Shown here: positions 29,101 to 62,961 of the stretch, one piece after another
Numbering within the stretch: position 1 is the first letter of the stretch
Layout of the letters: every line of letters starts with the position of its first letter
Assembly: GCA_951406725.2 (NCBI GenBank)
Contig: OX597814.1
Span: 5,642,001 to 5,706,000, forward strand
Length of the DNA stretch: 64,000 bases
Source: Octopus vulgaris
Taxonomy: Eukaryota
Direction: 5' to 3'
Notes under the pieces: generated by a model
Told to the model about the DNA's origin: nothing
Databases searched by the model: none
The model's input: the letters and a program-made list of their open reading frames with translations, nothing else
Translations under genes and position numbers: made by a program

Positions 29101-32100
29101 AGCTCCCATGACTTCAGGAAACATTTTTTCACGCTGAGAGTTGCTGAAGCGTGGAACAAACTGCCGGCATCGGTTGTTAGTTGTCGGAGCACTGCATCCT
29201 TTAAGACTTCCATGCTTCCTGAGATTCGCCAACACTACACTTGATTTTCTCCCCTCCATACACACACAAGCATGTTCACTTTCCAGACATTTCTACATTA
29301 CTGCATGTACTTTATATGCACTTTCTGACAAGTTGTGGTGCACTGAGCACTGTATACAATAATTTCATTATTATATTTCCACTTTAAAATCGAGCATTTC
29401 GGCAATTTTAACCAATCGCTCACTTCCGTTTGGGGTGAAAAGATTCCGTGCTGTATGAATATGTCCCTCGTTTAAGAAACAGATAGGGTTTATTTACATT
29501 TGCGAAGAAAAAAAGGTACCCTTCCCCCACCCCTAACCCTAACCCTAATCCTAAAATAGATTGCAATGCAATAGATCGATACTAGGGTTATAATTATGGG
29601 TGACAATTTTATACGACACCGCTACGGAAAATGGGATTTTTTTCTAGCGGTGTCAAATGAAAATGTCACCCATAATTATGGCCCTAGTATCGATCTATTG
29701 CATTTCAATCTATTTTAGGATTAGGATTAGGGTTAGGGGTGGGGGAAGGGTACCTTTTTTTCTTCGCAAATGTAAATAAACCCAATCTGTTTCTTAAACA
29801 AGGGACATATTCATACAGCACGGAATCTTTTCACCCAAAATGGAGGTGAGCGATTGGTTAAAATTGCCGAAATGCTCGAAATTTCAGACGAAATATCTTA
29901 CAACATATACAATTTTCTCAATATAGCCAAGAAAAAATGATGTTTTATAAACACATTCTACCAGTATACGAAGTTTAAAAGTGTTAGTTAACTAGAAATT
30001 GTGTTGACATCTGCCGTTCAAAAGGAAAAGATCCGAAAATTTTAATTTTTTGTACAGAGTCTTATGAGCTGTCCACAAGGCTTTGGCTTTGGCGACACGA
30101 AACCTTTGATGACTCTAAGTCCAAAATTTAAATTTTTGTTGTAATAATTACTACTCTGTTCTTAAGAGTGTGTTTCTTTTCTGATGTATGTTTTATCGAC
30201 TGTCTATGATGATATTGGCCCAACTCATCTACATGAATGGTGACAGCCATTTCTTGTATATTTTCAATTATAATCTAAGTGAAAAACTTCCAATATTCAT
30301 AATACAATTTTGGCAGCTTTTTTCAACCCAGTCAACAAAAGGTTTTTCTGATAGTATAGAACAAGGACAGTAAACAATAATGAGGATCATTTCTATTTTC
30401 TTTCTTTATTGCAGAATATCATTTTGGTAAATTCCAAGAATATCAACATCAAACAACTAACAACAAAAACATCAACCAACCGTTACTATTTCTGTGTCTT
30501 GAGGATAAACCACAAAGTAAACATCTTTGATCCGGCTTGTATTTTGAATTGAGTAGTTTTTCACGGCTTCATACATAGTTCTGGGTAGGTTTTCAATGGG
30601 GTACCTCAATTTTCCACCTCCTAATGTAGGAAATGCAAGGCTTTTTGCTCCCAATTCCTCAGCTTTTTCCAGACAAATGGTTATTATTTGAGTCAAGTTT
30701 GCCAGAATCTAAAAAAAAATAATTGTTTAGAAATTGATAATGAACATTTTATTACAGGAAGGAATCGTTAAGTTGTAATTAATATATTCTTTGATTAACA
30801 GATTCCATAAAGAATTTTTTGTTCTAAACAGAAATGTTTTAGACATTTGAATAACATTAATCAACTTCTAGTGATTATTGGATTAACAGATCATGTGGTC
30901 ATTGGATTAACACAGATCATGTGACAGAAGGATCAACACAGATCATGTGATAGCAGAAAGTCTGGTCTGAGTGAAGATATGGATGCCATGAATAGAAAGA
31001 GAAATGTTCCAAGATTTGGTGGTTGCACAGTGTAATTCAGGTGGAATTTTGTAATTAACAAAAAAAACAGTAATATGGAAGAGGGGAGATTAATTATTAT
31101 TTACAAGAGGGAAATCTGGGTGAGAACATACTGCAAGAAGCAACAAAACCACCCACAAGGCAGGGTGCCACAGGCACAAAAGACTCTACACTGCACACAA
31201 GAGACTATAGTTGAGTCGAAATGTTCAGGGAATATCTACAATAGAGTCTACATCAATTTCAAACAACCAGAATCCATGCTTTGGAAACTGTACAGAATAC
31301 CACAACACCAGACTGTCACACTGTAGCCCAAACTGTACATCACTGGAGATCAAAGTACATGCTACTGTCTTGAAGCAAACGGAGGTGTTGTATGACTGGA
31401 AAAACAGATCTGTGGGTTGTGCAGAGTTTTATGGACAATTCCATTCATGCCACAGGGATGCTGGATCAATGATTACCTAGGGTTGTACAACAACTCTTTC
31501 AATAAAACAATATCACATGATTGATACTTACTGAATCGGGGGAATCTTCATTCCAAAAGCGTAATGCCAGATGAAATACATTCTTACACTTGAGGTTGTA
31601 TCCTTTAGTGATGGCTATTTCAGATGCAGAAATACCTTGAGGATATGTCTGGTTACATTCGCTTTGTATCTGGGGACCAGCAGCATTGAGAATAAATTTG
31701 GAGATAGACCCTTTGTCAAGCTGGAGATGTTCATTGGTGCTGTTAACGATGACATCAACCTACAAAAGTAATTAATGGTAAACAGCTAAGGAACATTCCG
31801 TGGAGAGAAGAGAGATACATTGTTGCAGTTGATATTGTTGTTAAGAAAGGCTCTACAGAATGGCTGTAGTAAGTTTGAGGTTGTTAAAGTTAGCAAAAGA
31901 TATACTCAAGACATCAGATGTGAAGGAAATAAAATGTTTGAGTTTGATTGAGAAAATGTTTTAATTAACTGTAACGATTCCTTATTTGGAAATGAAATAA
32001 CAATTAAATATAAATAAGTTACATGAATCTATTTACTCACAGATACATTAGTAATTGAACCAATCGTTAGGTTTATTTTAACTCCACCAACATTTTCTGT

Positions 32101-40000: not shown

Positions 40001-43000
40001 AGCCGGCAGTGACATCGACTACACTCGAATGATGCTTTTTATGTGCTACCAGCACAGGAGCCAGTGAGGTGGCACTGGCCATAATCACGCTCGAATGGTG
40101 CTTCTAATGTGCCACCATCATGGGTGCAAATCAGGCAGCACTGGAATTGGCCACGACAACGATTTCGCTTACTTCAACAGGTCTTCTCAAACACAGTTTA
40201 TTGCCCAATGATTGAAGGGTACTCTTAAATGGGCTGGTTATGCTGCACTGGCATAGGCCACGGTTACAGTCTCACTTGGCTTGCCTGGTCTTCTCAAGCA
40301 TAGCATATGTCCAAAGGTCTCGGTCACTTGTCATCACCTCCGTGAGGCCCAACGTTTGAAGGTCATGCTTCACCACCTCATCTCAGGTCTTCCTGGGTCT
40401 ACTACTTCCACAGGTTCCCTCCACTGTTAGAGTGTGACACTTTTTCACACAACTGACCTCATCCATTAGTGTCTCATGACCATACCAGTCGTCTCTCTTG
40501 CACACCACATCTGATGCTTCTTAAGTCCAACTCTTCTCTTAGGCCACTTACACTCTGTTGTGTATGCACACTGACATTACACATCCAGTGGAGCATACAA
40601 CCTTCATTTATTGCAAGCTTACGCATGTCCTCAGCAGTCACATCCCATGTAGCATGACTGTTCACATGCATGCGTCATACAGTCTACCTTTCACTCTGAG
40701 TGAGAGACCCTTTGTTACCAGCAGAGGTAGGAGCTTTCTGAACTTTGCCTGGTTTATGCTTATTCTAACAGTTATGCTCTCAGAGCATTCACCCCCTACT
40801 ACTGGGTTGGTCACCTAGGTAACAGAAGCTATCAACTACTTCTAGTTTTTCACCCTCGAATGTGATGTAAATTGTTTTCTGCACATCTTCAGTGTTTATT
40901 GCTCCTGAGCATCTGCCACACACAAAAACTATCTTCCCAGTTAGCCCCACCCCTTTGATATTGCTGCTTCTCTCATGTGTCTATATCTTATACCGGGTAC
41001 ATCTTATGGAGTTTCTATCTACACATTTCCTACAAATTGAGCAGGGCCATCTATCTGAAGGGATTTATGGGATGTCTGCCTTCTTACTAAGGCTTTGGTT
41101 TTTGCTAGATCGACTCTAAGGCCCTTCAATTTTTAGACCTTGCTTCCGCACATGAAATGTCTTCTCTAGTTCTGGTAGTGACTCAGCTATTAGAGCAAGG
41201 TCATCAGCATAGAGAAGCTTCCCAAGGGCAGACTGTCTTGAATTCCTCTTTTATTGTCTGGACGACTATGAAAGGGGCCTGAAGACCAATCCTTAGTGAA
41301 TCTCTACTTCTACCTGGAATTCTTCACTAGACTCATTGCCGACCCTTATCTTACTGACAGCATCCCTGTACATGGCTTGCACAGCTCTCACTAACCATTC
41401 ATCTATCCCTAGTTTCCTCATTGACCACCAGATAAAGGATTGGGGCACCCTGTCAAAGGCTTTCTCCATATCAACAAAAGCCAGATACAGAAGTTTATGT
41501 TTGGCTAGGTATTTCTCTTGCAGCTGTCTTACCAGAAATATAGCATCAGTGGTGCTTTTCCACGGCACAAACCCAAACTGCATCTCGTCTAAACTAACTC
41601 TCTCCCTAATTAGTTGGGCTACAACCCTCTCTGTGACTTTCATTACTTGATCCAACAACTTGATACATCTGTAATTATAGTATCTAATGCATCACCTTTA
41701 CCTTTGTAGCAGTTGACTAGTATGCTGCTACACCAGTCATTGGGTATGACTCCTTCATGTATCACCTCATTGACTATACAAGTGACTAGACTATAGCCTA
41801 CACCACCAGATATTTTAAGCACCTCTGCAGTGATTCCTGATGGACTGGGGCTTTCCCTGTCTTCATACTCTTAATTGCTTTATCTACCAAGGTACTGTAA
41901 ATTTAGATAGCTGGTCCCTATGTTGGGTCGACATTTGGCAGACTCTCTTTCTCCCATTCATTCTCTTCATTTGGCAACCTTTCATAGTGATGTCACCAAG
42001 TCTCTCTCTTTGCAGCATCATTAAATGCAAGTGAGCCATCCTCCATGCAGACACATTTCTCTCCTATGACATCACGATTCTCTCTCACACACTGTCTTGC
42101 AACATGAAGCACCTCAAGTCTTTGGTCCTCACTACGCAAAACATTGGCAAATTTTTTCCTTTAGTGCTGTTAAAATGTCCAACCCATGCCAGCATGGAAA
42201 CCAGATGTTAAATGATGATGATGATAATTCCATGTTTTATTTTGTTTTCTATTTCCTTTGTGTATTTCAAAATACATTTTTTGTAAATTCTAAAAATTTC
42301 AACATAAAACAACAAATACAGCAACCAACCTTTATTATTTTTGTCTCTGTAGGAAAAACAACAAAGTAAACGTCTTTGATCTGGCTTGAATTTTGATTTG
42401 AGTAGTTTTTCACTGCTTCATACATAATTCCAGGTAGTTCTTCAATGGGGTACCTCATTTTTCCAGTCCCTAATATAGGAAATGCCAGGCTTTTTGCTCC
42501 CATTCTCTCAGCAGTTTTTAGACAATTGGTTATTATTTGAGTCAAGTTTGCTAAAATCTATAAAAATAATTGTTTAGTAATTGATAATGAACATTTTATT
42601 AAATTATTTTCTTACTACAGGAAGGAATCATTAAGTTGTATTAAATATAATCCCCCTTCAGTTAGATGGCCCTGCTCGATCTGTAGAAAAGGCGTAGGGA
42701 GAAACTCCATAAGATGTACCCAGTCTAAGCTATGGACACATAAGAGGGGCAGAGGTATCAGAGGAAAGTTATCTGGGAAAATATTTTTTGTGTGTGGAAG
42801 GTGTAATAAACAGTAGAAATGTACAGAAAAGAGACTCCATCAAGTGACAGTGGGGAAAGTTAGAAGTAGTTGATAGCTCCTATTATCTAGGTGACCAAGT
42901 TAGTAGCGGAGGTGGATGCTCTGAAAGAATAGCTACTAGAATAAGACGAGGCCAGGCAAAGTGCAGAGAGCTTCTACTTCTGCTGGTAACAAAAGACCAT

Positions 43001-46000
43001 GAAGTTAGTGTGCTACACTGGATGTGCAATGCCATTGTGCGTGTACAACAGAGAGTAAGTGTCATGAGAGTCGAGAGAAAAAAATGGCCATAAGAGGCAT
43101 CAGATGTGGTGGTGGTGCAAGAGACACAACTGCATTGGTATGTGATGTGCACGGACAGGGACGGCTGTGTGAAGAAGTGATGATATCTAACTTTGGAGGG
43201 AACCTGTGGAAGACCCAGGAAAACATGGGATGAGGTGGTGAAGCATGACCTTTGAATGTTTGGGCCTCACAGAGGCAATCACTACTGACCGAGACTTTTG
43301 GCAATATACTGTGTGTGAGGGGACTAATCAGGTCTAGTGGAATCGTAGCTGAAGCCATGCCAGTGTCATGTAAAGGCTAGCTGTGAATGGTCATCGTGGT
43401 CACTGCCATATACATAACACCCATGCATCATACTTGTGCTCATTGATGGTGCCATGTAAATTGGGACGTGGGAATCATGACCAATGGTGATGCCATGCAA
43501 ATGGCACCTACGCATTGTGGTCATAGTCACTGTCGGTGCCATGTAAATTGCACCCATCCACGAATCATAGTTGTGGCTGTGGTCGGTCTCATGTGAATGG
43601 CGCCCATACTGGTGGTATGTAAAGGTACCCATTACACTCCTGGAATGGTTAGCGTTAGCAAGAACATCCAGCTCTAGAAACCATGCCAAATCAGACTGGA
43701 ACCTGGTGCAGCTCCTCAGCTTATCATCCCCCAGTTAAAATGTCCAACCCATGCCAGCATGGAAAGCAGACGTTAAAATATGATGATGATTTTGTTGTTC
43801 TAAACAGAAATGTTTTACAGATTTGAATAATAATAAACAACTTCGAGTGACTATTGGATTAACAGATCATGTGGTCATTGGATTAACACAGATCATGTGA
43901 CAGAAGGATCAACACAGATCATGTGATAGCAGAAAGTCTGGTCTGAGTGAAGATATGGATGCCATGAATGGAAAGAGAAATGTTCCAAGATTTGGTAGTT
44001 GCACAGTGTAATTCAGGTGGAATTTTGTAATTAACAAAAAAAAAAAAAAACAGTAATATGGAAGAGGGGAGATTAATTATTATTTACAAGAGGGAAATCT
44101 GGGTGAGAACATACTGCAAGAAGCAACAAAACCACCCACAAGGCAGGGTGCCACAGGCACAAAAGACTCTTCACTGCACACAAGAGACTATGGTTGAGTC
44201 GAAATGTTCAGGGAATATCTACAATAGAGTCTACATCAATTTCAAACAACCAGAATCCATGCTTTGGAAACTGTACAGAATACCACAACACCAGACTGTC
44301 ACACTGTAGCCCAAACTGTACATCACTGGACATCAAAGTACATGCTACTGTCTTGAAGCAGACGGAGGTGTTGTATGACTGGAAAAACATATCTGTGGAT
44401 TGTGCATAGTTTTATGGACAATTCCATTCATGCCACAGGGATGCTGGATCAATGATTACCTAGGGTTGTACAACAACTCTTTCAATAAAACAATATCATA
44501 TGATTGATACTTACTGAATCGGGGGAATCGTCATTCCAAAAGCGTAATGCCAGATGAAATACATTCTTACACTTGAGGTTGTATCCTTTAGTGATGGCTA
44601 TTTCAGATGCAGAAATACCTCGAGGATATTTCTGGTTACATTCGCTTTGTATCTCTGAACCAGCAGCATTGAGAATAAATTTGGAGACAGCACCTCTCTG
44701 AAGCTGGAGCTGTTTATTGCTGCTGTTAACGATGACATCAACCTAGAAAAGTAATTAATGGTAAACAACTAAGGAACATTCCGTGGAGAGAAGAGAGATA
44801 CATTGTTGCAGTTGATATTGTTGTTAAGAAAGGCTCTACAGAATGGCTGTAGTAAGTTTGAGGTTGTTAAAGTTAGCAAAAGATGTACTCAAGATATCAG
44901 ATGTGAAGGAAATAAAATGTTTGAGTTTGATTGAGAAAATGTTTTAATTAACTTTAATGATTCCTCATTTGGAAATGAAATAACAATTAAATATAAATAA
45001 GTTACATGAATCTATTTACTCACAGATGCATTAGAAATTGAATCAATCAATAGTTGTATTTTGATGCCAGCATTTTCTCTGGATGTCACAGTAGTTCTGT
45101 ATAACATGGAGGATAATTTCTGTAGTGAACCAGGAAAGGATGGGTTTGGTGATGGGGTATCTGAAAATAAACAAATAGCAATATATATATGTATAACAAC
45201 TCTCCTTTACAACTGTACACATGTTTCTGTTCTATTTCTGGTTATCTCTCTCTCTCCCTCTTCCCCTATGTCTCAGGCCAGGTAACCTTGTACCTCCTCC
45301 TCAGCAAGGCACATGTTTCTATCTCTCCATCTCACTCTAACATTTTATCATCTGACACAAGAACCCCTCCTGCAATGCCCCCTCTCCTCTCAAAGGATTC
45401 TTGTCTTGCAAGGTACTTGGTGACCCTGCCAGTGCTGGTGCCACTTAAAAAGCATCCAGTCCACACTGTAAAGTGGTTGGTGTTTGGAAGGGCATCCAAC
45501 AGTAGAAACCTTGCCAAAACTGACCTTGCCTGTGCTGGTGTCACATAAAAAGCAGTCAATCCACTCTGTGGGGTGGTTGGTGTTGGGAAGAGCATCCAGC
45601 CATAAAAACCATGTCAAAACAGACACAGATGTTTGGTGCGGTCTTCTTTCTGGCTAGCCCTGGTCAGACCATCCAACCCATGCCAGCAGGGAAAAAAGCT
45701 GTTAAATGACAAAGAAGATGATGGCGATGATATATATATTATCATCATCATCATCATTTAGCATCTGTTGTGCAAGCTGGCATGGGTTGGACAGTTTGAC
45801 CAGGTCTGGAAGGCTGCACCAGACCCCAATCTGATCTGGCATGGTGTCTACAGCTGGATGCCCTTCCTAATGCCAACCAATCCAAGAGTGTAGTGGGTGC
45901 TTTTACGTGCCACCAGCATGGGTGCCATTTGCACGACACTGGTATCTGCCCCGACTGCCATTTTACTTGGCTTCATGGCTCTTCTTCTTAAGCACGACAT

Positions 46001-49000
46001 AATGCCAAAGCACTCTGTCATTACTTCTGTGAGGCCCAACATTTGAAAGGTTGGCACGTGTGCCAGTTATGTGACACCAGCATCAACCACGACCATGATT
46101 TCACTTGGCTTCACAGGTCCTCTCAAGCACAGGACATTGCCAAAGGTCTTGATCACTAGTCAATACCTCTGTGAGGCCCAAAGTTTGAAGATCATGCTTC
46201 ACAACGTCGTCCCGTGTCTACCTCTACCACAGGTTCCCTCCACAGTTAGAAATCAGCACTTATTTACACAGCTGTCCTTGTCCAAACGCATCACATGACC
46301 ATACCAGTGCAGGCTTCTCTCTTGCACCACCACATCTGATGCCTCTTACACCCAGCTTTTCTCTAAAGATGTTTACACTCTGTTGAACATGCACATGGAC
46401 ATTGCACAGCCAATGAAGCATACAAGCTTCATTTCTTTCAACACTATGCATATCCTCAGCTGTAACAGTCCATGTTTCACTGCCATGTAGCATAGCCATT
46501 CACACACAATCTGCCTTTCACACACACACATGTATACACAAAACTTAAAGAATGGTATAGATAAGATCTGGGCTACAAGCGGAATATCAGAAGTGGTAAA
46601 TCTCCAAGCGAGGTGTATACTGCAGGCTACTCATCAGGCTGAGGGTATCTTGATTAAATAAATGTTTACATTGTAATAAGGAGGTACACGTTAACACATG
46701 GAAGACTCAGTCAGAATGAATAGAGAGCACAGAAGGAGAGGAGAACATAAATGGGGAGAGAAAGAAGAAGAAAAGAAAAAAAACATGTGAAGTGAGAGGA
46801 ATGAGGAATATAAATAAGGTCATTTGTCCAGTAGTATTCAATAAAGCTGCTAAGGTGGTATTTCATCTGTCTGTACGTCCTGAGTTCAAATTCCGCCGAG
46901 GTCGACTTTGCCTTTCATCCTTTCGGGGTCAATTAAATAAGTATCAGTTATGCACAGGGGTCGATATAATCGACTTAATCCATTTGTCTGTCCTTGTTTG
47001 TCCTCTCTGTGTTTAGCCCCTTGTGGGTAGTAAAGAAATAGGTATTTCGTCTGTTTTTACATTCTGAGTTCAAACTCCAGTGAGGTCGACTTTGCATTTC
47101 ATCCTTCCGGGGTCAATAAATTAAGTACCAGTTGTGTACTGGGGTCGATCTAATTGATTGGCCCCCTTCCACAAAAAATTTGGGCCTTGTGTCTAGAGTA
47201 GAAAAGATTATTCAATAGGGCTGCTTTGGTCGAATTGCAGAAGGGGAGAGGTATTAGAAAGGTAATGTGCGGGGAAGAGGGTGGGGAAATGTTTTTAGTG
47301 AAGAGGGAGACAAAAGTATGAAGAAAGCAAGAGAGAATGGAGAAGAATCATGGCGGCTACCACATGTGTCCAATTGGTGAATGTATATTGTGTGCTGGGA
47401 GCATGTTTACAGTATGAAGTAGGGGAGGTGTCTGTTGGCGGCTGTACCTGTAAGGTTATGAGCAGGAGTGGGGCGGCAGGTGAGATAATAGGAAAAAATG
47501 TTTAAATGGTATGGGAAAAATACAGAGAGAAGCAAGTAAATGGTAACATGGAATTAAAGGGAAGACATATTGCCGGTTTAATAATATGGCAGTAGTGAGG
47601 GGGGGCATAAGAGGGAAAATTTATGAAGGCTGGGGGGGGATGCGGAGTGTGGTTGTTGTGTTTAGAAAATGGATTTGGTGATCAAGTTTCTCAAATAAGA
47701 GACGTAGATTGGTTTGTTGGGGTAGGATGTGTGAAAAGTTTTCTTGTTAGGTGTGGGTGGAGCACACAGATCTGGGGCTAGGGGATAGCAGTGAGACAGG
47801 GCCAGGAGGACAGGACTGGGGAGTGGGAGGTAAGCCTAGTGCATGAAGGAGGAGATGTGAGGAAGAGATGTAGTTTGGTTTGTTGTGGTAGGGCATGCGA
47901 GAAGTTTTCTTGTTAGGTGTGGGTGGATCACACAGATCTGGGGCTAGGCGATAGCAGTGAGACAGGGCCAGGAGGACAGGATTGGGGAGTGGGAGGTAAG
48001 CCTAGTGCATGAAGGAGGAGATGTGAGGAAGAGATGTAGTTTGGTTTGTTGTGGTAGGGCATGCGAGAAGTTTTCTTGTTAGGTGTGGGTGGATCACACA
48101 GATCTGGGGCTAGGGGATAGCAGTGAGACAGGGCCAGGAGGACAGTATTGGGGAGTGGGAGGTAAGCCTAGTGCATGAAGGAGGAGATGTGAGGAAGAGA
48201 TGTAGTTTGGTTTGTTGTGGTAGGGCATGCGAGAAGTTTTCTTGTTAGGTGTGGGTGGATCACACAGATCTGGGGCTAGGGGATAGCAGTGAGACAGGGC
48301 CAGGAGAACAGGATTGGGGAGTGGGAGGTAAGCCTAGTGCATGAAGGAGGAGATGTGAGGAAGAGATGTAGTTGGGTTTGTTGTGGTAGGGCATGCGAGA
48401 AGTTTTCTTGTTAGGTGTGGGTGGAGCACACATATCTGGGGCTAGGGGATAGCAGTGAGACAGGGCCAGGAGGACAGGACTGGAGAGTGGGAGGTAAGCC
48501 TAGTGCATGAAGGAGGAGATGTGAGGAAGAGATGTAGTTGGGTTTGTTGTGGTAGGGCGTGCGAGAAGTTTTCGTGTTAAGTGTGGGTGGAGCACACAGA
48601 TCAGGAGCTAGGGGATAGCAGTGAGACAGGGCCAGGAGGACAGTATTGGGGAGTGGGAGGTAAGCCTAGTGCATGAAGGAGGAGATGTGAGGAAGAGATG
48701 TAGTTTGGTTTGTTGTGGTAGGGCATGCGAGAAGTTTCCGTGTTAAGTGTGGGTGGAGCACACAGATCTGGGGCTAGGGAATAGCAGTGAGACAGGGCCA
48801 GGAGGACAGGACTGGGGAGTGGGAGGTAAGCCTAGTGCATGAAGGAGGAGATGTGAGGAAGAGATGTAGTTAGGTTTGTTGTGGTAGGGCGTGCGAGAAG
48901 TTTTCTTGTTAAGTGTGGGTGGAGCACACAGATCTGGGGCTAGGGGATAGCAGTGAGACAGGGCCAGGAGGACAGGACTGGGGAGTGGGAGGTAAGCCTA

Positions 49001-52000
49001 GTGCATGAAGGAGGAGATGTGAGGAAGAGATGTAGTTGGGTTTGTTGTGGTAGGGCGTGCGAGAAGTTTTCTTGTTAAGTGTGGGTGGAGCACACAGATC
49101 TGGGGCTAGGGGATAGCAGTGAGACAGGGCCAGGAGGACAGGACCGGAGAGTGGGAGGTAAGCCTAGTGCATGAAGGAGGAGATGTGAGGAAGAGATGTA
49201 GTTAGGTTTGTCGTGGTAGGGCGTGCGAGAAGTTTTGGTGTTAAGTGTGGGTGGAGCACACAGATCTGGGGCTAGGGGATAGCAGTGAGACAGGGCCAGG
49301 AGGACAGGATTGGGGAGTGGGAGGTAAGCCTAGAGCATGAAGGAGGAGATGTGAGGAAGAGATGTAGTTTGGTTTGTTGTGGTAAGGCGTGCGAGAAGTT
49401 TTCGTGTTAAATGTGGGTGGAGAACACAGATCTGGGGCTAGGGGATAGCAGTGAGACAGGGCCAGGAGGACAGGACTGGAGAGTGGGAGGTAAGCCTAGT
49501 GCATGAAGGAGGAGATGTGAGGAAGAGATGTAGTTTGGTTTGTGGTGGTAGGGCGTGCGAGAAGTTTTCGTGTTAAGTGTGGGTGGAGCACACAGATCAG
49601 GGGCTAGGGGATAGCAGTGAGACAGGGCCAGGAGGACAGGACTGGGGAGTGGGAGGTAAGCCTAGTGCATGAAGGAGGAGATGTGAGGAAGAGATGTAGT
49701 TTGGTTTGTTGTGGTAGGGCGTGCGAGAAGTTTTCGTGTTAAGTGTGGGTGGAGCACACAGATCAGGGGCTAGGGGATCGCAGTGAGACAGGGCCAGGAG
49801 GACAGGACTGGGGAGTGGGAGGTAAGCCTAGTGCATGAAGGAGGAGATGTGAGGAAGAGATGTAGTTGGGTTTGTTGTGGTAGGGCGTGCGAGAAGTTTT
49901 CTTGTTAAGTGTGGGTGGAGCACACAGATCAGGAGCTAGGGGATAGCAGTGAGACAGGGCCAGGAGGACAGTATTGGGGAGTGGGAGGTAAGCCTAGTGC
50001 ATGAAGGAGGAGATGTGAGGAAGAGATGTAGTTTGGTTTGTTGGGGTAGGGCATGCGAGAAGTTTTCTTGTTAGGTGTGGGTGGAGAACACAGATCTGGG
50101 GCTAGGGGATAGCAGTGAGACAGGGCCAGGAGGACAGGACTGGGGAGTGGGAGGTAAGCCTAGTGCATGAAGGAGGAGATGTGAGGAAGAGATGTAGTTT
50201 GGTTTGTTGTGGTAGGGCGTGCGAGAAGTTTTCTTGTTAGGTGTGGGTGGAGCACACAGATCTGGGGCTAGGGGATAGCAGTGAGACAGGGCCAGGTGGA
50301 CAGGATTGGGGAGTGGGAGGTAAGCCTAGTGCATGAAGGAGGAGATGTGAGGAAGAGATGTAGTTTGGTTTGTTGTGGTAGGGCATGCGAGAAGTTTTCT
50401 TGTTAGGTGTGGGTGGAGCACACAGATCAGGGGCTAGGGGATAGCAGTGAGACAGGGCCAGGAGGACAGGACTGGGGAGTGGGAGGTAAGCCTAGAGCAT
50501 GAAGGAGGAGATGTGAGGAAGAGATGTAGTTTGGTTTGTTGTGGTAGGGCGTGCGAGAAGTTTTCGTGTTAAGTGTGGGTGGAGAACACAGATCAGGGGC
50601 TAGGGAATAGCAGTGAGACAGGGCCAGGAGGACAGGATTGGGGAGTGGGAGGTAAGCCTAGTGCATGAAGGAGGAGATGTGAGGAAGAGATGTAGTTTGG
50701 TTTGTTGTGGTAGGGCGTGCGAGAAGTTTTCTTGTTAGGTGTGGGTGGAGCACACAGATCTGGGGCTAGGGGATAGCAGTGAGACAGGGCCAGGTGGACA
50801 GGATTGGGGAGTGGGAGGTAAGCCTAGTGCATGAAGGAGGAGATGTGAGGAAGAGATGTAGTTTGGTTTGTTGTGGTAGGGCGTGCGAGAAGTTTCCGTG
50901 TTAAGTGTGGGTGGAGCACACAACACTTCCAGAATTCAGTTTTTACTGATGTGGCTGGGTCTTCTCAAGAACTTCATATCGCCAGACATCTTGGTAAATT
51001 GTCATTTCCTCCACGAGGCCCATCTTCCTGAGATCGGTCCTCACTATTTCATCCTGCATCTTCCTCGGTCTTCCTCTTCATCAGGTACCATCCACTTTCA
51101 GTGATCTGCACATCTTTATTCCAGCTGTCCTCATTCATACGCATCACATCTCCAAACCAATGTAGTCTCCTCTCTTGCAAGCTACACTTTATTCCTCTTA
51201 TGCCCAACTTTTCTCTCAATACATTTGCACTTTGCCGTACATGAACTTATGAATAGAAGCGGTGTCAGTCAGAAGCAAACATCTGTTTGCTGTTCTCACT
51301 GAAGATACTGAAGAAATTTTGGGCCATATACCTCCTTAATATAAGAGTACGAACCCTTGGCATCATTTCTGTCAGCTGCTTCTTGTGCCCCTTTTGCTCT
51401 ATCATTCTACCATTCCTGTTTAATTTTCTTTGGAGCAGTCTTCACTTTCCCTTTCAGCTTTCTGTAAGCTTTGAGTTGGGGTTCAATGACTGAGAAAGAA
51501 GTGTATTGCCTAAGTTTTTTTTTCTAAAAGTAGATCATGAATTTCTGCTGATCTGAGAACCAGTCACTGGACATATGTGATTTAAATCCCACTGACAAAC
51601 TTTTGTTTTGAAATCTTCCCATAGATTGTTTGGGCCAAGATTGATACTTTCTATAGCATTACTCTTTTACTCTTTTACTTGTTTCAGTCATTCGACTGCG
51701 GCCATGCTGGAGCACCGCCTTTAGTCGAGCAAATCGACCCCGGGACTTATTCTTTGTAAGCCCAGTACTTATTCTATCGGTCTCTTTTGCCGAAGTGACG
51801 GGAACGTAAACACACCAGAATCGGTTGTCAAGCAATGCTAGGGGAACAAACACAAACACACATACATACACATATATACGACAGGCTTCTTTCAGTTTCC
51901 GTCTACCAAATCCACTCACAAGGCATTGGTCAGCCCGGGGCTATAGCAGAAGACACTTGCTCAAGATGCCACGCAGTGGGACTGAACCCGGAACCATGTA

Positions 52001-52308: not shown

Positions 52309-52844
52309 CTTTATATATAAAAGAGAGGTTGTGTGCTGTCTGTCTCCTACGATTTAGATTCCTAACTACTCCCACATTTTGCGGTGCAGTTTAACCAAAA
52401 CCGGGTATCTTATAGTCGTGATTCATATCGAGCCCTTCTGGGTATTAGCGCGCGTCTACAATGAGTCTACGATTTAAAAAAAAAATTACCATAATTTTTC
52501 ATCATTTTTAATGCATTTTCGCTCAGTTTATATAAGGGAAGTAACTCTCTATAAATGCTTATATAGTTATTTCCCTTACAAACCCGAGCAACGCCAGGCA
52601 ATACTGCTAGTATAAAATAAAACAGGAAACTGGAAATTTTTTGTTTCCATTTCAAACAATCCAACCCAAACCAGCATGGAAAACAGACATTAAACAACGA
52701 TGATGATGATGATGATGATGGGTAAAAGTTTTATTGTTTTATTTCTGTAAATTTTCACAAGTATTATTTTTGAAACTTTAAATCCAAAAAAGAAAATTTT
52801 ATATAAATGTGATTAAAAAATAAATAAATACCTCTCTTTTCCAT
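16500..52844 (-). CDS. PARP14/PARP15-like: Macrodomain-containing mono-ADP-ribosyltransferase (PARP14/PARP15-like); 13 coding exons, ~651 aa, macro-macro-linker-PARP catalytic domain
   Basis: Hand-spliced exons 52832-52844, 45024-45160, 44515-44742, 42330-42557, 37299-37350, 32041-32180, 31532-31759, 30481-30708, 27603-27657, 26287-26352, 22199-22332, 21633-21810 and 16500-16768. All are GT-AG and phase-compatible and sum to 1956 nt with no internal stop. Macro motifs VDVIVNS and SLAFP.LG.G; ART motifs IERIQN, LWHGT, GFNRSYCGKNAT.FGEGVYFA and IYVIFHDSQAYPNYLITF. Confidence 0.9.
17230..18035 (+). mobile_element. RTE LINE RT fragment, degraded
   Basis: GVHQGSVL...LLYAD; GRLYDVCILTAILHGNEMWAL. 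Confidence 0.85.
18301..20270 (-). mobile_element. Young 5'-truncated RTE-clade LINE with uninterrupted 464-aa RT ORF (18846-20240), VNTR-containing 3' UTR and (GAT)n tail
   Basis: QFGFVPGKSTTDAIF, FVDMEKAFDRV, GVHQGSVLSPLLF, YADD, FRYLG and GRPRKTW motifs; (TA)n on both sides. Confidence 0.95.
20381..20620 (+). repeat. Inverted near-identical copy of 19548-19787 (RTE internal segment)
   Basis: 240 bp with one mismatch seen; bounded by (TA)n. Confidence 0.92.
21633..21810 (-). CDS. Macro-PARP exon (ART domain, HGT motif)
   Basis: ttttctacag / gtaagt. Encodes IERIQNKTLYHGYQVLKRKFEAENPNITNEVDGLWHGTAEGAVRGINKSGFNRSYCGKN; 178 nt, phase 0-1. Confidence 0.95.
22199..22332 (-). CDS. Macro-PARP exon (start of ART domain)
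   Basis: ggcctctag / gtttgt. Encodes (E)SVPVTWSPMGDEELFKIVPVTNGPEYDDIQATFRQNLPSYRIIK; 134 nt, phase 1-0. The P..W..M and EY..I...F pattern matches PARP14/15. Confidence 0.9.
22600..23530 (-). mobile_element. Degraded RTE LINE with 3' UTR pieces
   Basis: GGCMESVIARIRIGWRKFR and VQERRVYWFGDVMQM. Confidence 0.8.
23560..24815 (-). mobile_element. Penelope-like element remnant: GIY-YIG endonuclease preceded by an Asn/Thr-rich segment
   Basis: ORF 23813-24190: C..R...CPL...C....VYQCTV...YYIG...SW.II...C.LCL.E, the Cys-flanked GIY-YIG pattern of PLEs. No RT seen. Confidence 0.8.
24858..26172. repeat. 1.3-kb (AAT)n microsatellite with ATT/GAT variants
   Basis: Direct inspection. Confidence 0.98.
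26287..26352 (-). CDS. Macro-PARP basic linker exon (66 nt, symmetric)
   Basis: tttctttcatacaag / gtgagg. Encodes (A)STKSQPGKSQKKKFRHRNVKK; phase 1-1 fits both neighbours. Confidence 0.65.
26870..27070. repeat. 56-bp tandem repeat, about 3.5 units
   Basis: ggcagttccc at 26887, 26943 and 26999, with a variant at 27055. Confidence 0.9.
27603..27657 (-). CDS. Macro-PARP exon (last helix of macrodomain 2)
   Basis: ttacttctaacag / gtaaat. Encodes KFKEYFQEISTDGSTASS; 55 nt, phase 0-1. Positional paralogue of 37299-37350. Confidence 0.8.
28809..30034. mobile_element. Palindromic non-autonomous DNA transposon (GG...CC ends, 8-bp TSD; Merlin- or MULE-like)
   Basis: ggatcttttccttttgaacggc / gccgttcaaaaggaaaagatcc. 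TSD gaaaattt at 28801-28808 and 30035-30042. Inner arms at about 29390-29630 and 29640-29880 carry (ccctaa)n. Confidence 0.88.
28930..29372 (+). mobile_element. CR1/L2-type LINE 3' fragment nested in the palindromic element
   Basis: LRRLAADL..THKII...TRGH...RKHFFTLRVAEAWNKLPASVV. Its 3' UTR recurs inverted at about 28040-28140. Confidence 0.85.
30481..30708 (-). CDS. Macro-PARP exon (macrodomain 2, C-half)
   Basis: tttttttttag / gttggt. Encodes ILANLTQIITICLEKAEELGAKSLAFPTLGGGKLRYP...IKDVYFVVYPQDTEIVT; 228 nt. Confidence 0.93.
31532..31759 (-). CDS. Macro-PARP exon (macrodomain 2, N-half)
   Basis: cttttgtag / gtaagt. Encodes VDVIVNSTNEHLQLDKGSISKFILNAAGPQIQSEC...IAITKGYNLKCKNVFHLALRFWNEDSPDS; 228 nt. 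Confidence 0.93.
32041..32180 (-). CDS. Macro-PARP exon (linker and first strands of macrodomain 2)
   Basis: ttgttttcag / gtgagt. Encodes (D)TSSPNPSFPGPQQKAAPITSTTNVISTENVGGVKINLTIGSITNVS; 140 nt, phase 1-0. Confidence 0.9.
33690..34985 (+). mobile_element. Degraded R4/Dong-like (RLE) non-LTR retrotransposon fragments
   Basis: NITII...MINIAVPADQNV...KADKYQDLVIQV (RLE motif), YKYPG and the RKEGGRG region. Confidence 0.65.
35243..36427 (-). mobile_element. 5'-truncated RTE LINE with 3' UTR
   Basis: RVKGRLYDACVRAAMLHGSETWAV; (CAT)n tail; microsatellites on both sides. Confidence 0.92.
36622..36995. repeat. Near-perfect inverted repeat (about 180-bp arms, 13-nt spacer) resembling an inverted Penelope-type terminal repeat
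   Basis: Arms 36622-36802 and 36816-36995; the right arm runs into (TA)n. Confidence 0.95.
36854..36946 (+). ncRNA. Type I hammerhead ribozyme candidate (mirror copy on the minus strand at about 36670-36763)
   Basis: CTGAAGA at 36863-36869, stem II gaaagacacaat/attgtgcctttt, GAAA at 36925, palindromic stem III acacgtgt, GTA triplet at 36934-36936, weak stem I ttc/gaa plus tatt/aata. Confidence 0.65.
37299..37350 (-). CDS. Macro-PARP exon (last helix of macrodomain 1)
   Basis: ttgttttcacag / gtaaac. Encodes IFTEYLNRQKNEGFHSK; 52 nt, phase 0-1, bridging 42330 and 32180 in frame. Confidence 0.8.
39342..42110 (-). mobile_element. Long degraded RTE LINE with 3' UTR VNTR
   Basis: RT motifs in ORF 41293-41658, with frameshifts. 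131-bp repeats start at 39693, 39824, 39955 and 40086. Confidence 0.92.
42330..42557 (-). CDS. Macro-PARP exon (macrodomain 1, C-half)
   Basis: atttttatag / gttggt. Encodes ILANLTQIITNCLKTAERMGAKSLAFPILGTGKMRYP...IKDVYFVVFPTETKIIK; 228 nt. Confidence 0.93.
42650..43790 (+). mobile_element. Degraded RTE LINE 3' portion inserted in the macrodomain-1 intron
   Basis: RWPCSICRKGVGRNSIRC, YLGDQVSSGGGCSE and a (GAT)n tail. Absent from the paralogous intron 30709-31531. Confidence 0.85.
44515..44742 (-). CDS. Macro-PARP exon (macrodomain 1, N-half)
   Basis: cttttctag / gtaagt. Encodes VDVIVNSSNKQLQLQRGAVSKFILNAAGSEIQSEC...VFHLALRFWNDDSPDS; 228 nt. Confidence 0.93.
45024..45160 (-). CDS. Macro-PARP exon (N-terminal segment and first strands of macrodomain 1)
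   Basis: ttattttcag / gtgagt. Encodes (D)TPSPNPSFPGSLQKLSSMLYRTTVTSRENAGIKIQLLIDSISNAS; 137 nt, phase 1-0. Confidence 0.88.
45390..46510. mobile_element. Tail-to-tail RTE-related fragments (+ 45390-45730, - 45740-46510)
   Basis: Terminal segments in both orientations; AMLHGSETWTVTAEDM. Confidence 0.75.
46855..47207 (+). mobile_element. tRNA-derived SINE with duplicated core (9738 family)
   Basis: gagttcaaattccgccgaggtcgactttgcctttcatcctttcggggtc and a variant repeat. Confidence 0.8.
47690..50921. repeat. 166-bp tandem satellite, about 19.5 units, purine/G-rich on the + strand
   Basis: gtgtgggtgg recurs at 47751, 47917, 48083 and onward. Confidence 0.97.
51660..52043 (-). mobile_element. 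tRNA-derived SINE, second family
   Basis: Head ggcgcaggagtggctgtgtggtaag (A box), ggttcagtccc (B box) and a (taaaagag) tail. Partial copies near 35020-35210, 38530-38880, 61375-61550 and 62035-62215. Confidence 0.85.
52308..52610 (+). mobile_element. Non-autonomous Helitron-like element
   Basis: A/TC 5' end (tctttatatataaaag), imperfect GC hairpin cccgagcaacgccagg, then a CTAG/T 3' end; no TSD. Confidence 0.75.
52832..52844 (-). CDS. Candidate start-codon exon (exon 52832-52866, coding part ATG GAA AAG AGA G)
   Basis: Strong acceptor ttttattttcatttgcag and donor gag/gtattt. The ATG has A at -3 and G at +4; the phase 1 end matches exon 45160 (MEKRDTPSP...). Confidence 0.6.
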
Positions 52845-60647: not shown

Positions 60648-60960
60648 TTTACCAGTCGTTAATGATACGAGGGACGAAATAACCACTGAGTTATATGTTT
60701 TGTCATTTATTTTCTCTGTAAACTGATAACAAAACTTGCATACGACTTAAACATATTTATTTCTGTCGTTTATCAGAACATCATAAAATGGGCGAAAGTA
60801 AAGCGAGTTCACACCACCGAACTAACCTGTTTGCGCAGTAGAAAAATCTGGTTAAAAGCAATCAAGAATTTACAAACGATATTGTCGGTGTGTGGGGTCC
60901 CTCTTGCCGCCCTTTTTTCCGAACCAAAATAAGGGATTTGCTGCATATTAGGAAGTCGGG
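60648..60960 (-). promoter_or_regulatory. Candidate non-coding first exon and promoter of the macro-PARP gene (upper boundary uncertain)
   Basis: Donor aaa/gtaagt at 60648 in CpG-richer, non-repeat-looking sequence upstream of the ATG exon. Splicing to 52866 places an in-frame TAA upstream of the ATG. Confidence 0.4.
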
Positions 60961-61068
60961 GTACCTGATTGCAAGCAAAAAATCGGGTTTTTTTTTATTT
61001 TGTCTTAGTGAAAATCGTGCGGGTATTAATATAGAAATATACCCTTACATACGCACGAACGTTTATAC

Positions 61069-61235
61069 CAGTGGGTTTCAACCAGGGTTCCGCAAGAAGT
61101 TACAAAACTGCTAAAATCAGCAGTAATTTTTAATTCACCTGTGCATAAGACAATTAAATTATTGCACAGGGCTTCCTCGAGCCAGTGGAATGTTTCCTTG
61201 GGGTTCCGCTCCAGCAAAAAGTTTGAAAAGCACTG
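61069..61235. mobile_element. hAT-type MITE with 8-bp TSD
   Basis: cagtgggtttcaa / ttgaaaagcactg. TSD gtttatac at 61061-61068 and 61236-61243. The mirror copy at about 62353-62508 lacks one end. Confidence 0.85.
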
Positions 61236-61552
61236 GTTTATACAGACACATAAATGAAATCACGTAAATACATATACACATACATTATATATACACACAC
61301 AAAAATACATGTACATACGTACACACACATACATACATACAAAAAATGCATGTATATATTCTTGTATTTATTTCATTCATTTAACAGCGCTCATGCTGGA
61401 GCACTGCCTTTAGTCGAAGAAATCGATCCCAGGACTTATTCTTTGTAAGCCTAGTACTTATTCTATCGTCACCTTTGCTGAACCGCTAAGTTACGGGGAT
61501 GTAAACATACCAACAACGGTTGTGAAGCGATGGTGGTGGGGAGACAAACACG

Positions 61553-61607
<55 letters not shown>

Positions 61608-61610
<3 letters not shown>

Positions 61611-62010
61611 TTATTTACATTTGACGGATATTTGTTCCTCATCTTGTTTCTTGTTAACATGCTTCGGCTGATATACCCTCCAACCTTCTTCAGGTGTATC
61701 TGGGGAAATTTCAAACTTGACTTCTCATTCCTAAGGTATTTTTTTATGTTGTTGTTATTATTAAGGTCACTGCCTGAAATCGAACTCGGAATCTTGGGCT
61801 TAGTAGCCCGCGCTCTGAACCACTACGCCCGTGGCATGTGGCGTAGTGGTTCAGAGCGCGGGCTACTAAGCCCAAGATTTCGAGTTCGATTCCAGGCAGT
61901 GACCATAATAATAATAACAATAACTACAATAACAACATAAAAAAATACCTTAGGAATGAGAAGCTAGGTTTGAAATTTCCCCAAGGTTGGAGGGTATATC
62001 AGCCGAAACA
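61608..62010. mobile_element. Head-to-head tRNA-derived element with hammerhead-like tail, inserted in (TA)n
   Basis: A box tggcgtagtgg and B box gagttcgatt(c/t)c on both strands. ctgaaga-ggttgg..tcagcc-gaa on the minus strand at 61655-61697. Confidence 0.7.
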
Positions 62011-62961
62011 TATATATATATATGTGTGTGTGTGTGCGTGTTTGTCTCCCCACCACCATCGCTTCACAACCGTTGTTGGTATGTTTACATCCCCGTAACT
62101 TAGCGGTTCAGCAAAGGTGACGATAGAATAAGTACTAGGCTTACAAAGAATAAGTCCTGGGATCGATTTCTTCGACTAAAGGCAGTGCTCCAGCATGAGC
62201 GCTGTTAAATGAATGAAATAAATACAAGAATATATACATGCATTTTTTGTATGTATGTATGTGTGTGTACGTATGTACATGTATTTTTGTGTGTGTATAT
62301 ATAATGTATGTGTATATGTATTTACGTGATTTCATTTATGTGTCTGTATAAACCAGTGCTTTTCAAACTTTTTGCTGGAGCGGAACCCCAAGGAAACATT
62401 CCAGTGGCTCGAGGAAGCCCTGTGCAATAATTTAATTGTCTTATGCACAGGTGAATTAAAAATTACTGCTGATTTTAGCAGTTTTGTAACTTCTTGCGGA
62501 ACCCCTGGACAGCGATCCGACTTCCTAATATGCAGCAAATCCCTTATTTTGGTTCGGAAAAAAGGGCGGCAAGAGGGACCCCACACACCGACAATATCGT
62601 TTGTAAATTCTTGATTGCTTTTAACCAGATTTTTTTACTGCGCAAACTGGTTAGTTCGGTGGTGTGAACTCGCTTTACTTTCGCCCATTTTATGATGTTC
62701 TGATAAACGACAGAAATAAATATGTTTAAGTCGTATGCAAGTTTTGTTATCAGTTTACAGAGAAAATAAATGACAAAACATATAACTCAGTGGTTATATA
62801 TATATATATATATATACAAACAAACGAAAATATTTTGACAAATTAAACTTAAATGTTGAAGTGAATCGAACGGCTTTTGTGTGTTTCTTAAATGGCTTAT
62901 AAACACCTTCCTCGCTGCAATTGTTTTCGTTTCAGCACACGATCTCAGATCAAATTACTTG

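Follow-up and report, generated by a model that had tools for sequence, protein, structure and literature searches.

The 64-kb window described here (C1:5642001-5706000 in a 2.8-Gb Octopus vulgaris assembly; positions below are in window numbering unless given in Mb) carries on its minus strand what is, to judge by the spliced sequence, an intact macro-macro-PARP gene of the PARP14-like kind. It belongs to a large family in which the exons of the macrodomain modules are diverse and the introns between them homogenised. The explanation that we hold to be probable is that the modules are tandem readers resembling macrodomain 2 (MD2) of human PARP14, that gene conversion shuffles them, and that selection keeps exon differences, chiefly at the rim of the predicted ligand pocket. 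An earlier note on this DNA, made from the letters alone, had proposed a conversion tract between the two modules of this one gene and an immune arms race at the locus. Here we present the gene model, the family to which it belongs and the tests of these proposals.

Gene structure

Twelve exons with GT-AG junctions join into a single open frame of 629 codons (spliced model). A short start exon is followed by macro module A, a linker, macro module B, a further linker and the PARP catalytic domain. Each module is divided into exons E1, E2 and E3, separated by introns 1 and 2. The features are listed below together with matches to the O. sinensis orthologue P0010 and to the proteins P0032 and P0041; X15 and X16 are RNA-like runs, and their RNA status is a guess.

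52832..52844, minus strand: putative first coding exon (4 codons + 1 nt); matches the N-termini of P0010, P0032 and P0041; in-phase GT donor
45024..45160, minus strand: module A exon E1 (linker and first strands); 100% to P0010 5-51; AG/GT
44743..45023, minus strand: module A intron 1, 281 nt, homogenised family-wide (alignment)
44515..44742, minus strand: exon E2 of module A, for the N half of the macrodomain; codons 10-19 (loop 1) span 44686-44715, and the pair-private conversion tract covers about 44515-44607
42558..44514, minus strand: intron 2 of module A, of the alpha type; carries about 1.1 kb of inserted sequence
42330..42557, minus strand: exon E3 of module A, for the C half of the macrodomain with the pyrophosphate loop (loop 2)
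37299..37350, minus strand: linker exon between modules A and B; match to P0010 202-219; linker-type loose end at 32182 in RNA-like run X15
32041..32180, minus strand: module B exon E1; 100% to P0010 220-267; X15 contig 32053-32174, 0 differences
31760..32040, minus strand: module B intron 1, 281 nt; joint in X16 skips 281 nt, CT..AC ends
31532..31759, minus strand: exon E2 of module B; codons 10-19 (loop 1) span 31703-31732, and the pair-private tract covers about 31532-31624
30709..31531, minus strand: module B intron 2, alpha type, 823 nt
30481..30708, minus strand: module B exon E3
27603..27657, minus strand: linker exon (comparison and splice sites)
26287..26352, minus strand: putative, likely optional in-frame cassette exon, lysine-rich; 91% to P0032 213-235; absent from P0041
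22199..22332, minus strand: PARP catalytic domain exon 1
21633..21810, minus strand: second exon of the PARP catalytic domain, with the His motif and the donor loop
16500..16768, minus strand: PARP catalytic domain last exon and stop; PF00644 E=4.7e-8

Pfam assigns Macro domains in tandem (PF01661) and a PARP domain (PF00644, on the last exon) to the gene, and in the spliced model the catalytic domain is predicted to lie C-terminal to the macrodomains and in frame with them. The catalytic exon translations contain the His and Tyr motifs and an Ile at the third place, which we take to be the His-Tyr-hydrophobic triad of mono-ADP-ribosyltransferases; the domain is predicted to be such a transferase. 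The AlphaFold model of P0010 (mean pLDDT 83) has human PARP14 MD2 as its best single-domain structure match (3q71, rmsd 1.7 Å), and the sequence search also ranks this domain top (3vfq/3q71; phmmer 1e-24, single domain). The macrodomain identity given in the earlier note is supported, the type being PARP14 MD2-like, and the duplication is real. The P0010 protein model shifts frame within E3 of module B and ends early; the frame is intact in the window (30481-30708), and the shift may be an allele or an assembly error.

The layout of PARP14 proper, with a first macrodomain (MD1), N-terminal RRM/KH domains and WWE, is not that of the window gene. A hydrolase-type MD1 exon was not found between its modules and the next upstream catalytic exon, and no RRM/KH or WWE match was found in the 64-kb window. 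With no MD1 exon in this interval, the layout resembles that of PARP15 by convergence.

None of the runs listed as holding the sequence is recorded as RNA. In the two RNA-like runs exon depth is in the hundreds as against 0-8 in introns; most of the cover comes from paralogues, and contig depth is not to be read as copy number or expression level. One of these runs has the joint across the 281-nt intron, and splicing of the family is thus observed. The DNA-like runs X4 and X8 were unable to tell introns of the orthologue from those of paralogues.

Family size and sample

The E2 exon has at least 51 matches in this genome, none with an internal stop, clustered at 5.3-9.4 Mb, 206-207 Mb and 215-216 Mb of C1 and at 31.8 Mb of C29. 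Two catalytic exons gave 17 and 16 intact matches in the C1 clusters, which corresponds to at least 16 genes with a catalytic domain, and 19-22 copies of an MD1 exon are present in other family members. At C1 206.61-206.77 Mb, seven modules stand between one MD1 and one catalytic domain. The genes of the family are already auto-annotated as PARP14-like.

Of 51 modules fetched, 49 were analysed for E2 and intron 1 (L033 is broken, and L024 duplicates L018, with which it is identical over E2, E3 and intron 1), 48 for E3 (L028, which has a frameshift, was also excluded) and 42 for E1 (seven more have a truncated or shifted E1); the common, beta type of intron 2 was analysed in 35 modules and the profile along the modules in 34. 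The damaged modules are L033, L028, L055, L044 and L058. Together with L019/L025, the pair L018/L024 (C1 7.55-7.60 versus 8.52-8.57 Mb) represents a whole gene present twice in almost identical form, by recent segmental or by false duplication. The E3 of L052 is a deeply divergent C-half type (77% to the window) behind ordinary homogenised introns; it occurs also in O. sinensis P0013 and is an old haplotype that has been retained.

Intron homogeneity and probable gene conversion

The counts made by eye on the window pair were reproduced in global alignments: the modules differ by 7 substitutions in the 281 nt of intron 1 (31760-32040 versus 44743-45023) and by 8 in 457 nt of intron 2 (31075-31531 versus 44058-44514), within a stretch of high identity spanning approximately 30876-32044 versus 43852-45027. 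Exon E2 differs at 15 of 228 nt (31532-31759 versus 44515-44742; 2 synonymous and 13 non-synonymous differences by the Nei-Gojobori method), an excess over both introns (Fisher p=0.0015), and the differences are clustered as described, nine of the 15 lying within 39 nt (scan p=0.004). Between the C-half exons there are 34 differences in 228 nt (9.5 synonymous and 24.5 non-synonymous), and the loop peptides quoted for both modules were recovered.

The single tract of about 1.2 kb, private to the pair, that had been deduced from these counts has to be given up, since near-identical introns are found throughout the family and each window copy of intron 1 has closer relatives than the other. Among the 50 modules with an intron 1, almost all match the window copy of it at 93-98% identity; two read 84% in BLAST, owing to a 39-nt insertion. 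The mean pairwise difference is 4.1% for intron 1 (49 modules) and 3.2% for intron 2 beta (35 modules), as against 10.5% for E2. In intron 1 the window pair, with its 7 differences and no rare variant in common, is unexceptional: each of its two copies has a closer relative among the other paralogues (L014-L017 differ at 5 positions and L015-L016 at 2). Pair-private sequence is confined to the 3' part of E2 (nt 136-228; 1 difference versus at least 11 to any other module). For the loop of module B the closest copies are those of L013 and L023, at 3 differences, and for the module A loop those of L013, L047 and L048, at 6. The loops are thus mosaics common to other paralogues, and what the most recent conversion between the two window modules made uniform is the coding stretch 3' of the loop.

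Across the family, conversion is widespread and affects short patches in different combinations. The neighbour-incompatibility test for recombination gave p<=0.004 in all four parts of the module, and the distance matrices of adjoining parts are almost uncorrelated (rho -0.06 to 0.19). Along 34 modules the diversity is 0.12-0.23 in E1, 0.02-0.07 in intron 1, 0.04-0.16 in E2, mostly 0.01-0.06 in intron 2 and 0.09-0.17 in E3, and homology fades out in the long outer introns. Within the introns diversity declines from 0.07-0.08 near the exons to about 0.02-0.03 in the middle (block-permutation p=0.051 and 0.028). Intron 2 comes in two types, alpha and beta, whose sequences are for the most part unrelated, with insertions that bring it to a total length of up to 3.9 kb. 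Non-coding sequence of the paralogues is therefore more alike than their coding sequence, with recombination among them, which is the pattern of concerted evolution; in the catalytic region the intron (11.9%) is no more conserved than the adjoining exons.

Variation in the macrodomains

Of all 10-codon windows along the 167 domain positions, loop 1 (E2 codons 10-19) varies most (p=0.005-0.008; p=0.002-0.004 with polar positions only), and the 49 modules have 36 different 14-mers there. Among single positions, E2-11, E2-16 and E3-33 are the top three in variability. The floor of the pocket is conserved, with N6 and G17 present in 49 of 49 modules and N9 in 47, and 25 of the 76 E2 codons are invariant. 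Aligned to known macrodomains, codons 6-9 would represent the NAAN motif, codon 16 the position at which the triple glycine of the distal-ribose loop begins, and E3-33 the aliphatic lid of the pyrophosphate loop. In a coronavirus macrodomain the triple-glycine loop is described as having an effect on the distal ribose and on the protein linked to it (PMC7729036). In MD1 (20 of 22 first-exon copies) none of the 39 positions varies as much as the one preceding the glycine pair (nine R, seven M, three K, one W), while 25 of the 39 are invariant; this residue occupies the same place on the predicted pocket rim as in loop 1 of E2.

Hydrolase activity needs Asn/Ser and Gly by loop 1 and a hydrophobic plus an aromatic residue in loop 2 (PMC10221186). 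The octopus modules have the loop 1 residues (N9 and G17) and lack the aromatic residue of loop 2, E3-34 being Leu in 32 and Met in 16 of 48 modules and aromatic in none. A Phe-to-Leu change nearly abolishes the activity of the coronavirus enzyme (PMC7729036), and human PARP14 MD2 is inactive (PMC10499325). The octopus modules resemble the latter in the invariant pocket glycine and in a loop 2 without an aromatic residue, but differ from it in keeping the motif Asn. From this make-up of loop 2 and the inactivity of human MD2, the modules are predicted to be readers, which would bind ADP-ribose but not remove it. At E3 codon 32 one glycine of the pyrophosphate loop is missing in 15 of 48 modules; this is a second loop 2 type, and ADP-ribose binding may be different in it or absent.

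Selection tests

Neutral conversion was simulated forward in time with 50 copies and tracts of 100-800 nt (30 runs, 600 autocorrelated snapshots). The ratio of E2 to flanking-intron diversity was at most 1.38 in all snapshots, whereas the observed ratio is about 2.4-2.6; raised diversity of E1 and E3 did arise in the simulation, as an edge effect. Diversity in E2 is 5.2% at 4-fold sites, near the intron level, and 9.5% at second positions. In the codon models, M2a against M1a gave a likelihood-ratio statistic (LRT) of 144 for E2, with a non-synonymous to synonymous rate ratio (dN/dS, omega) of 5.0 on 28.5% of sites. CpG hypermutation was considered as a source of variants and dismissed, with 12 of 160 E2 variants, one CpG in the consensus and no excess.

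Several observations weigh against positive selection aimed at the pocket. The tree-free density ratio of non-synonymous to synonymous variants, each variant counted once, is 0.86-1.07 in E2. An LRT of 144 or more was reached in 3 of 34 null simulations with free recombination and variation in genealogy depth (recombining nulls without depth variation: maximum 70.6, none of 16 at 144), and the second-position/4-fold ratio of 1.81 was reached by 6-42% of null simulations, so that neither statistic is used as proof. For E3, omega is 0.59 under M0, and its LRT of 17.7 lies inside the null range; like those of E1 (25) and the catalytic exons (42 and 54), which are within the range of the E2 nulls, it was left out of the evidence. 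Loop 2 as a whole is not enriched in variation (p=0.21-0.48), and variable sites lie off the pocket as well (E2-22, 25 and 33; E3-15, 40 and 69-77; catalytic exons), in helices, linkers and the catalytic donor loop. The pocket itself is placed by alignment to PARP14 MD2 and by published coronavirus macrodomain contacts, and an immune driver of the family's diversity is conjectural.

The simulation, the 4-fold sites and the decay of diversity away from the exons, set against the tree-free counts and the nulls, make it likely that selection holds exon differences against conversion; dN/dS above 1 is unproven. Of the earlier proposal, gene conversion and the excess of variation in the loop that would line the distal-ribose site stand, and the site-model result is not separable from a recombination artefact. 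In the catalytic exons (L060-L092, 16-17 genes) second-position diversity is 10-12%, about twice that at 4-fold sites (4-6%), and the donor loop after the His motif is variable.

Comparison between species

In a quick tree at the protein level the octopod MD2-like modules form one clade (support 100), in which the two modules of the single Argonauta protein included are nearly identical and are grouped apart from all Octopus modules. For setting paralogues of one species against orthologues of another, O. sinensis is too near a relative. Among 35 distinct O. sinensis E2 peptides, 7 equal a module of the present genome, 16 are within 5 residues of one and 15 differ by at least 10 residues from all 49. 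In close pairs between O. sinensis and O. vulgaris, 22 of 27 differing residues occur in other O. vulgaris paralogues. This suggests continuing shuffling and turnover between the species, to which incomplete assemblies could contribute.

Evaluation of explanations

That assembly collapse or mis-polishing made the introns alike is hardly credible. The window introns do differ (at 7 and 8 positions), an RNA-like contig equals E1 of module B exactly, and collapse is ruled out by P0010: encoded on a 74-kb contig of a different assembly, it carries the two modules in the order of the window and each with the loop seen there, and its E2 peptides depart from those of the window at 0 and 1 residues. 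The identity of L018 and L024 indicates that some false duplication elsewhere in the family is possible. The introns could also be alike through a functional element, RNA or regulatory, that conserves them while the exons evolve at an ordinary rate. Low diversity in mid-intron fits an embedded element too, and the synonymous variant density of the exon exceeds the intron density; yet the diversity of E2 at 4-fold sites is close to that of the introns, intron 2 occurs in two largely unrelated sequences and takes up large insertions, and there is little intron cover in the RNA-like runs. Rfam matches to an intron-hosted RNA were weak and far below the gathering score in L014 and L046, the two of 51 loci scanned, and we consider such an element quite improbable.

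Conversion combined with relaxed constraint would let tolerant surface sites drift neutrally in a redundant family, with omega above 1 as a recombination artefact. It accords with the tree-free ratio near 1, the nulls that reach the observed LRT, the several damaged modules and the edge effect that alone lifts E1 and E3 in simulation. Drift leaves unexplained, however, that exon sites exceed intron sites, the central exon never having risen more than 1.38-fold over both flanking introns under neutral conversion, and the many invariant E2 codons and the same rim position in MD1 also speak against it; we judge it unlikely. Somewhat less unlikely, though still doubtful, is selection for escape from pathogen antagonists on the macrodomain surface in place of new target recognition, the defence model favoured for primates (PMC4038475). 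The spread of variable sites over helices, linkers and the catalytic domain would agree with it, but the top three variable positions align to the loops closing over the distal ribose and pyrophosphate. Such escape is compatible with the conversion part of the explanation preferred here.

Under that explanation, conversion among PARP14-MD2-like readers with selection on their exons, short introns would keep a block of about 1.5 kb alignable among about 50 copies, so that conversion would erase neutral intron differences. Conversions overwriting useful loop residues would be selected against and new loop combinations kept. The outcome would be a patchwork of readers, each fused to a predicted mono-ADP-ribosyltransferase domain; a reader may recruit the transferase to a marked target and amplify the mark, as in a published model (PMC4038475). 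Selection, possibly from pathogens, may act through the need to recognise targets that change or to evade antagonists.

Other features of the window

A tandem array of a 166-bp unit (about 19 copies, about 96% identity) occupies 47697-50922, inside the intron that separates the start exon from module A, and an array with a period of about 106 bp lies at 14848-15728, just downstream of the last exon. Nested, near-perfect inverted repeats at 60679-62797 (281 bp, 99.3%; 495 bp, 99.6%) possibly represent a young foldback or MITE-like element. The segment 41308-41475 is presumably a reverse-transcriptase-like fragment. This segment and the repeat-derived 37791-37901, in the intron between the modules, match parts of annotated PARP14-like protein models, which suggests that these models include repeat sequence.

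Comparison with known systems

Tandem macrodomains ahead of a PARP domain are common to the octopus genes, human PARP14 (ARTD8/BAL2) and the vertebrate macro-PARPs. In contrast to the vertebrate proteins, the approximately 50 octopus readers are united in a single octopod clade and do not fall into MD2 and MD3 types, and up to seven modules stand between one MD1 and one catalytic domain; the window gene differs from PARP14 also in the domains that were not matched in it (MD1, RRM/KH, WWE). Mammalian PARP15, which arose by partial duplication of PARP14 (PMC4038475), likewise has two reader macrodomains and a PARP domain. It is mammal-specific (PMC10221186), whereas the octopus layout is convergent, with both modules of one type and within the octopods' own clade, and is not orthologous to it in the quick tree.

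The octopus family resembles the macro-PARP arms race of primates and bats (PMC4038475) in rapid macrodomain and catalytic evolution and in gene birth and loss. The same paper gives at least eight PARP14/15 genes in a microbat, as against at least 16 octopus genes, and locates the primate residues under selection on other surfaces than the ADP-ribose site, whereas the top octopus sites align to the rim of that site; the term 'gene conversion' does not occur in the main text of the paper. The arms-race-like pattern proposed for the locus thus stands, but the primate analogy is inexact. Homogenised introns, divergent selected exons and decay away from the exon are also the features of divergence peaks under conversion in red/green opsins, the major histocompatibility complex (MHC) and plant R genes (PMC3924837). 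Those peaks concern two genes or alleles, unlike the approximately 50 domain modules within and between genes in octopus, and in the literature searched no such peak was found described for macro-PARPs.

Macro-PARPs occur in molluscs (PMC10221186). No relevant passage on the expansion was found in PMC9712504 and bioRxiv 2026.04.23.720386, and the octopus expansion was not found described in the openly searchable literature, although the gene-family tables in octopus genome supplements may list it. A PARP14-like protein was reported in the skin mucus of O. vulgaris (PMC11431876), which is weakly suggestive of a barrier role.

Biological significance

The components are already known: macro-PARPs, their expansions and conversion with selection. 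Macro-PARP expansions are known in bats and fish, and the joint action of conversion and selection is a known process. Cephalopods are not known to have adaptive immunity, and their antiviral sensors are poorly mapped. As a speculation to which we give a rather low probability, the family could be a germline, conversion-shuffled repertoire of intracellular ADP-ribosylation receptors. Its approximately 50 modules with combinatorial rim loops, one to seven per protein before a transferase and each reading ADP-ribose in a different protein or nucleic-acid context, would turn over between sister species, as an NLR- or MHC-like immune sensor system directed at a post-translational mark. A family at least five times the human macro-PARP set, diversified at the pocket rim, would mean that the arms race over ADP-ribosylation reaches into the invertebrates, with an octopus version unlike that of primates. 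The approximately 36 natural loop variants on one scaffold would also make it testable how reader macrodomains distinguish ADP-ribosylated targets.

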